Shown here: positions 50,538 through 50,564 of the stretch, one piece after another
Position numbering within the stretch: the first letter of the stretch is position 1
How the letters are laid out: the number at the start of each line of letters is the position of its first letter
Source: Escherichia coli
GTDB lineage: Bacteria; Pseudomonadota; Gammaproteobacteria; Enterobacterales; Enterobacteriaceae
Assembly: GCF_001677475.2 (NCBI RefSeq)
Contig: NZ_CP015229.1
DNA: 64,000 nt
Direction: 5' to 3' (one strand)
Made by a program: the position numbers and the translations under genes
Notes under the pieces: model-generated
Databases searched by the model: none
Told to the model about the DNA's origin: nothing
The model's input: the letters and a program-made list of their open reading frames with translations, nothing else

Positions 50538-50564
50538 AGGTAAAACCGAGTAACTCGGTTTTAC
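50538..50564 (-). terminator. Intra-operon stem-loop (likely attenuator) between major pilin and chaperone genes
   Basis: Perfect inverted repeat ggtaaaaccgag-taa-ctcggttttacc followed on the minus strand by ttttaaaggttttt. Confidence 0.55.

Follow-up and report, generated by a model that had tools for sequence, protein, structure and literature searches.

The 64,000-nt stretch of Escherichia coli DNA analyzed here (contig NZ_CP015229.1 of assembly GCF_001677475.2; hereafter, the window) carries on its minus strand a fimbrial operon in which a perfect palindrome occupies the intergenic gap between the gene for the probable major pilin and that for the periplasmic chaperone. This palindrome encodes a hairpin located in the untranslated region at the 3' end (3'-UTR) of the pilin gene, and it probably works as a leaky Rho-independent terminator within the operon, a reading supported by the sequence comparisons described below. 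An element of this kind accounts for how one promoter can give thousands of rod subunits per pilus while the chaperone, usher and tip proteins are made in few copies. For fimbrial operons the principle is textbook knowledge, and what the finding contributes is an example and not a concept.

The palindrome is perfect over 29 nt (50538-50566; AGGTAAAACCGAGT-A-ACTCGGTTTTACCT), its two arms of 14 nt each being separated by a single central base. In the RNA of the minus strand, which is the coding strand of the operon, it gives a stem in which 6 of the 13 pairs are G-C, built around the core CCGAG-UUA-CUCGG with an A-tract on one side and a U-tract on the other. Folding of the hairpin alone yields -17.2 kcal/mol, compared with -5.95 +/- 2.4 kcal/mol for dinucleotide shuffles (z -4.65; none of 200 shuffles as good), and the whole gap is likewise more structured than its shuffled versions (z -3.6; 0/300), which excludes a chance origin of the palindrome. 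Just three sites in the 64 kb (5470-5498, 45103-45133 and 50538-50566) hold a perfect inverted repeat that has 12 bp or more and a loop of 3-8 nt, the random expectation being about 0.02 by our own arithmetic (64000 x 6 x 4^-12). The preliminary description of this DNA, which had placed a 12-bp perfect repeat with a 3-nt loop at 50538-50564, was correct in substance but left one A-U pair of the stem uncounted, and its coordinates are shifted by 1-2 nt, the 12-bp version of the repeat spanning 50539-50565. It had also named the flanking genes as pilin and chaperone, in agreement with their domain matches (PF00419 and PapD_N/PapD_C, respectively), had measured the gap accurately at 74 bp (50522-50595), and had proposed the folding-energy calculation whose favorable outcome is given above.

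The structure and location of the hairpin fit what is expected of an intrinsic terminator, i.e., a stem-loop that is stable, has a short loop (3-8 nt), and lies in the sense orientation downstream of a stop codon and clear of the terminating ribosome. Both neighboring genes lie on the minus strand, the pilin gene upstream and the chaperone gene downstream, and the hairpin is placed between them, with 29 nt separating its start from the stop codon of the pilin gene and 16 nt separating its end from the chaperone ATG. It also separates the major subunit gene from the assembly genes, the order being Fimbrial, PapD chaperone and usher, as expected for a fimbrial stem-loop. Counted from the G+C core CUCGG, the tail reads UUUUACCUUU and contains 7 T of 10 positions, whereas the antisense strand continues after the stem with GACGUAAU, without a U-run. 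The gap that holds the hairpin is the sole sizeable one of the operon, the other junctions being 29 nt, overlapping, 6 nt and 14 nt, and a consensus scan lists no promoter-like site on the minus strand between 51129 and 50521. Given this result and the mere 16 nt between hairpin and ATG, there is probably no space for a promoter specific to the chaperone, usher and tip genes, which would then need read-through from upstream, and any termination at the hairpin would have to be leaky.

Support for a functional RNA structure comes from comparison of the junction across operons. The sample comprised six identical contigs of the same lineage, which were the sole within-species sequences used, ten distant orthologs retrieved by exact-protein look-up, and the two loci that a scan of a genome collection with the chaperone yielded. 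The 12 distinct orthologs belong to Klebsiella oxytoca, K. aerogenes, K. huaxiensis, 'Enterobacter' lignolyticus, Citrobacter gillenii, C. braakii, Pseudocitrobacter, Kluyvera, Salmonella (two), Serratia fonticola and Buttiauxella, and seven of these loci adjoin pabC-yceG, as in the window. A hairpin followed by a T-tract occupies the same junction in all 12, with folding energies from -11 to -24 kcal/mol and a start 15-40 nt past the pilin stop codon. In the alignment, whose consensus is AATAAAGCCGGG-loop-CCGGCTTTATTTTTCGAGG, the GG.TTT formed by the 3' arm and the U-tract is invariant, 94.2% of the cells of the 11-pair helix are paired, and 6 of the 11 stem pairs show compensatory double changes. 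None of 500 shuffles reached the observed pairing, number of double changes or covariation score, and controls with a slid register were at most 60% paired. The window copy itself departs from the consensus by four compensatory pair changes (columns 20-53, 21-52, 26-47 and 30-43). Wobble pairs favor the sense strand (5 G.U versus 1 A.C).

The T-tract is conserved along with the helix. The 10 nt that follow the G+C core contain 6-9 T in each of the 13 sequences, and the corresponding tail in the orthologs reads TTTTTCGAGG. The distance between hairpin and ATG ranges from 1 to 29 nt, and in L002 and L017, the two loci with an ATG 25-29 nt away, the T-tract keeps its place beside the hairpin and not beside the ribosome-binding site. 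In contrast, neither the loop sequences nor the region 5' of the hairpin are conserved in this alignment. This pattern indicates that selection on pairing and on the T-tract keeps the structure, and that the window copy is a member of the family defined by the orthologs. The Lpf/Fim-like operons found beside pabC-yceG in Klebsiella, Citrobacter, Kluyvera, Pseudocitrobacter, 'Enterobacter' lignolyticus and Salmonella share with it the position, the pair register and the succession of T-tract and ribosome-binding site. They differ in having a more G+C-rich core (GCCGG(G)/CCGGC, as opposed to CCGAG/CUCGG in the window), a tetraloop instead of a triloop, and a nearly unbroken TTTATTTTT. The 13 homologous variants, with their differing cores, loops and U-tracts, could serve as a natural series for studying how read-through is tuned.

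In the orthologous operon of a Salmonella enterica locus (CP022117.1, L018 3190-5693), an insertion sequence that encodes a transposase with an rve domain (3901-5414) interrupts the usher gene. This operon is inactivated, yet its pilin-chaperone hairpin is intact.

In the mechanism that we propose, RNA polymerase would start upstream of the pilin gene and transcribe through it, and the hairpin would form once the polymerase is on the U-rich tract, at a distance from the stop codon that leaves it free of the terminating ribosome. A fraction of the polymerases would then release and leave a short, monocistronic mRNA of the pilin gene, with the hairpin shielding its 3' end from 3'-5' exonucleases, whereas the remaining polymerases would go on to transcribe the genes for the chaperone, usher, adhesin and minor subunits. 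The expected outcome is an excess of pilin message over assembly-gene message that matches the stoichiometry of the pilus rod. Termination, its partial efficiency and the stabilization of the pilin mRNA are thus predicted activities, of which protection of the 3' end probably accompanies termination. Partial termination had already been put forward in the preliminary description, and the comparative data (12/12 orthologs, compensatory changes and an invariant T-tract) speak in its favor. The term 'attenuator' used there is loose wording, since the element is of the intercistronic leaky terminator type and not a regulated leader attenuator. The T-rich stretch proposed to follow the stem is present if counted from the core, although it is interrupted.

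Several features weigh against termination. The U-tract of the window copy is broken after the core (UUUUACCUUUU, where the orthologous counterpart is UUUAUUUUU), past the full 13-bp stem just UUUAAAGG is left of it, where an intrinsic terminator is expected to have a U-rich stretch of about 7-9 nt, and the G+C core comprises just 5 bp. The U-richness upstream of the ribosome-binding site could serve translation initiation. Furthermore, a simple terminator scan of the window did not list the hairpin. On the sense strand, the same scan listed one of three canonical orthologous hairpins and missed the other two, because their A-tract pairs with the U-tract and the stem is thereby extended into the A/U tract. 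We therefore judge the silence of the scan to be a limitation of its rule and no evidence against a terminator. Finally, covariation by itself cannot separate termination from exonuclease protection.

A separate hairpin that the scan did list lies at 50589-50607 on the minus strand, where the stop codon of the pilin gene sits in the loop of a weak 6-bp stem, with CUGAUUUUAA coming after the stem. It was rejected as part of the element (-5.9 kcal/mol, z -1.9, not conserved in the orthologs) and probably arose by chance.

Protection without any termination is the alternative that survives best, though we regard it as rather unlikely. The hairpin would then merely block 3'-5' exonucleases after endonucleolytic cleavage, so that the pilin segment outlives the downstream segment of the message. 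Many internal hairpins that stabilize the upstream gene of an operon were found by Dar and Sorek in 2018 (PMC5927463), and these resemble the present one in being stable, intercistronic and placed where the upstream cistron, the more abundant of the two, has its 3' end. Moreover, that article describes a differential stability of papA mRNA and includes a paper on differential decay in the CFA/I fimbrial operon among its references, and the interruption of the U-tract in the window copy points the same way. However, the hairpins of that study lack a uridine tract (PMC5927463), whereas in the family described here the T-tract after the stem is the most conserved feature (an invariant TTT within 6-9 T of 10). 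In any case, protection and termination are not exclusive and can coexist.

Another possibility is that the hairpin acts on the chaperone gene, either by controlling its translation, through occlusion or positioning of the ribosome-binding site, or by marking the 5' end of a separate chaperone-usher transcript. The stem does end close enough to the ATG, at 16 nt, to invite the former idea, but the stem does not include the Shine-Dalgarno-like AAGG and GAG, and the variable distance between hairpin and ATG among the orthologs argues against both. As for a separate transcript, a perfect TATAAT is present on the coding strand at 50578-50573, 7 nt upstream of the hairpin, and a transcript initiated from it would begin at the hairpin. 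It was rejected as an internal promoter, as it is without a usable -35 element (2 of 6 positions at best), is absent from the list of the promoter scan, and is not conserved in the orthologs; the AT-richness of the gap probably accounts for its presence. These observations make an action on the chaperone gene improbable.

A further alternative is suggested by FimR2, an sRNA of E. coli and Salmonella, which RNase E cuts from the fimA-fimI gap of the E. coli type 1 fimbriae and which sequesters CsrA (PMC9723502). This gap, annotated as FimR2 in K-12, holds a position equivalent to that of the hairpin, i.e., the 3'-UTR of the major subunit gene in an operon of the related type 1/Lpf clade. By analogy, the hairpin of the pilin 3'-UTR could be released as a stable small RNA acting in trans. 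We consider this very improbable, and equally so a variant in which the hairpin-ended pilin 3'-UTR (about 65 nt, 50522-50595) accumulates as a stable trans-acting small RNA besides terminating transcription. Homology to FimR2 was rejected, as the best local alignment spans 6 nt and Rfam gives no match. In addition, the 74-nt gap has no GGA motif of the kind bound by CsrA, the loop being UUA, and neither the loop, a seed nor the region 5' of the hairpin is conserved among the orthologs. The K-12 element (NC_000913.3 4543674-4543708; L019 1175-1209) differs also in having no U-tract after it, and its gap is not more structured than shuffles (z +0.22). Thus, the gaps that follow the major subunit gene in related operons can have quite different roles. 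If a small RNA were nevertheless produced here, release of small RNAs from this gap would be a general trait of this fimbrial clade, with lineage-specific sequences.

The least probable alternative, namely that the palindrome acts at the DNA level as the site of a dimeric regulator or as a repeated extragenic palindrome, or is a product of chance, finds some basis in its perfect 29-bp DNA symmetry, with which covariation of complementary arms is formally compatible, but among the orthologs the arms change in sequence without losing their pairing, the sense strand accommodates G.U pairs, the asymmetry of the T-tract is strand-specific, the site lies downstream of a gene and not in a promoter region, the shuffles exclude chance, and the palindrome, even when as many as 3 mismatches are tolerated, is single-copy in the 64-kb window, as opposed to the many copies expected of a repeated element.

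A leaky terminator at this position has well-known counterparts. Stem-loops after the major subunit gene, associated with an excess of subunit message, are described for fimbrial gene clusters (PMC3373541), and a terminator structure 3' of papA is mentioned as well (PMC5927463). When a strong terminator is placed within fimA, the fim genes downstream of it lose their function (PMC9277811). The pap operon shares with the present one a hairpin and a U-rich tract directly 3' of the major subunit gene and ahead of the assembly genes, together with a presumed excess of subunit message; it differs in that the next gene is papH and in that stability also involves RNase E processing between papB and papA. 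In the operon described here, the next gene is that of the chaperone and no upstream regulator gene is cotranscribed. The element is thus an uncharacterized example of a well-known kind of fimbrial stem-loop for which there is no Rfam family: searches with 50300-51500 at E values up to 10, and with the 12 orthologous loci at the gathering score, gave no meaningful family. As a side observation, the sfmA-sfmC gap of K-12 also folds into hairpins, one of which is followed by UUUAUUAAAU.

The features of the operon are collected in Table 1. The best NCBIfam match of the pilin gene product is 'chaperone-usher fimbrial major subunit', below the curated cut-off, and together with the Pfam match this makes a major pilin the probable product. 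The 346-aa protein is probably the tip adhesin, as judged from its position in the operon. The tail that follows the hairpin includes the probable ribosome-binding site of the chaperone gene (AAGG, 8 nt before the ATG). The candidate operon promoter is the sole promoter-like site upstream of the pilin gene on the coding strand.

Table 1. Features of the fimbrial operon and of its intergenic elements (positions in the window).
Feature	Coordinates	Strand	Details
Candidate operon promoter	51223..51250	-	TTAACG-16-TATATT; 9/12, consensus match alone
Pilin gene, first in operon	50596..51129	-	177 aa; Pfam Fimbrial PF00419, E 5.9e-19
RNA hairpin	50538..50566	-	13-bp stem AGGUAAAACCGAG / CUCGGUUUUACCU, loop UUA
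Tail of hairpin	50522..50537	-	UUUAAAGGUUUUUGAG; extends U-rich tract, then AUG; 8 U of 16
Periplasmic chaperone gene	49844..50521	-	225 aa; PapD_N + PapD_C
Outer-membrane usher gene	47241..49814	-	857 aa; PapC_N, Usher and PapC_C domains
Gene of 346-aa protein	46217..47257	-	No Pfam match; weak NCBIfam fimbrial match, residues 208-346
Minor subunit genes	45686-46210, 45144-45671	-	174 aa and 175 aa, respectively; FimG/FimF-like
Palindrome at operon end	45103..45133		AAAAAGCGAAACACA-T-TGTGTTTCGCTTTTTTT, A5 and T7 flanks; between convergent fabF (+) and last fimbrial gene (-)

The palindrome at the end of the operon folds into -17.4 kcal/mol on the minus strand and -19.0 kcal/mol on the plus strand (z about -5), and it has the appearance of a bidirectional intrinsic terminator at which the operon would end. 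As a representative of canonical A-tract terminators it shares with the pilin-chaperone hairpin the succession of A-tract, stem, 3-nt loop and U-tract, as well as nearly the same energy on the coding strand. This similarity in build and energy counts in favor of a terminator at the pilin-chaperone junction. The two differ in that the intercistronic hairpin has an interrupted U-tract and extra G-C pairs outside the A/U tract, and in that it must let polymerase through to essential downstream genes. The end palindrome falls in a segment without match in ordinary E. coli.

This segment (45077-51810) consists of the fimbrial operon and the first ~325 bp of pabC, and is inserted between fabF and pabC. 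The surrounding DNA is that of E. coli, with matches of 99.3% for the fab genes (as far as window position 45076), 98.8% for the rne-rluC region and 98.7% for pabC-to-fhuE (from about 51808 onward). In contrast, none of 5,426 complete E. coli genomes matches the segment itself, even by sensitive blastn, or its pilin-chaperone region, by megablast and sensitive blastn, while a plasmid collection matched just the pabC/yceG flank. The chaperone is 100% identical to a protein of a few 'E. coli' assemblies (e.g., 'E. coli 1-176-05_S3'), and its next relatives reach at most 70% identity. Assembly GCA_014187675.1 likewise carries the operon. Orthologous operons occupy the pabC-yceG neighborhood in Klebsiella, Citrobacter, Kluyvera, Pseudocitrobacter and some Salmonella; no close donor of the segment was found. 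Identity to E. coli drops to 93.5% just inside the right junction (51808-52500), which suggests that the segment was imported by homologous recombination. The operon is thus a rare accessory segment, mildly more notable than the hairpin that it contains.

Two minor observations concern the remainder of the window. The divergent region between the pilin gene and pabC is AT-rich and measures 355 bp (42% G+C for 50001-52000), and an open reading frame (ORF) of 128 aa without Pfam match (51262-51648, minus strand) reaches from the region upstream of the pilin gene to within the start of pabC, which lies on the opposite strand; this ORF is probably spurious. The inverted repeat at 5470-5498 lies ~125 nt downstream of an 857-aa ORF (2772-5345) that, by its size and neighborhood, is probably opgH, and presumably represents another terminator.
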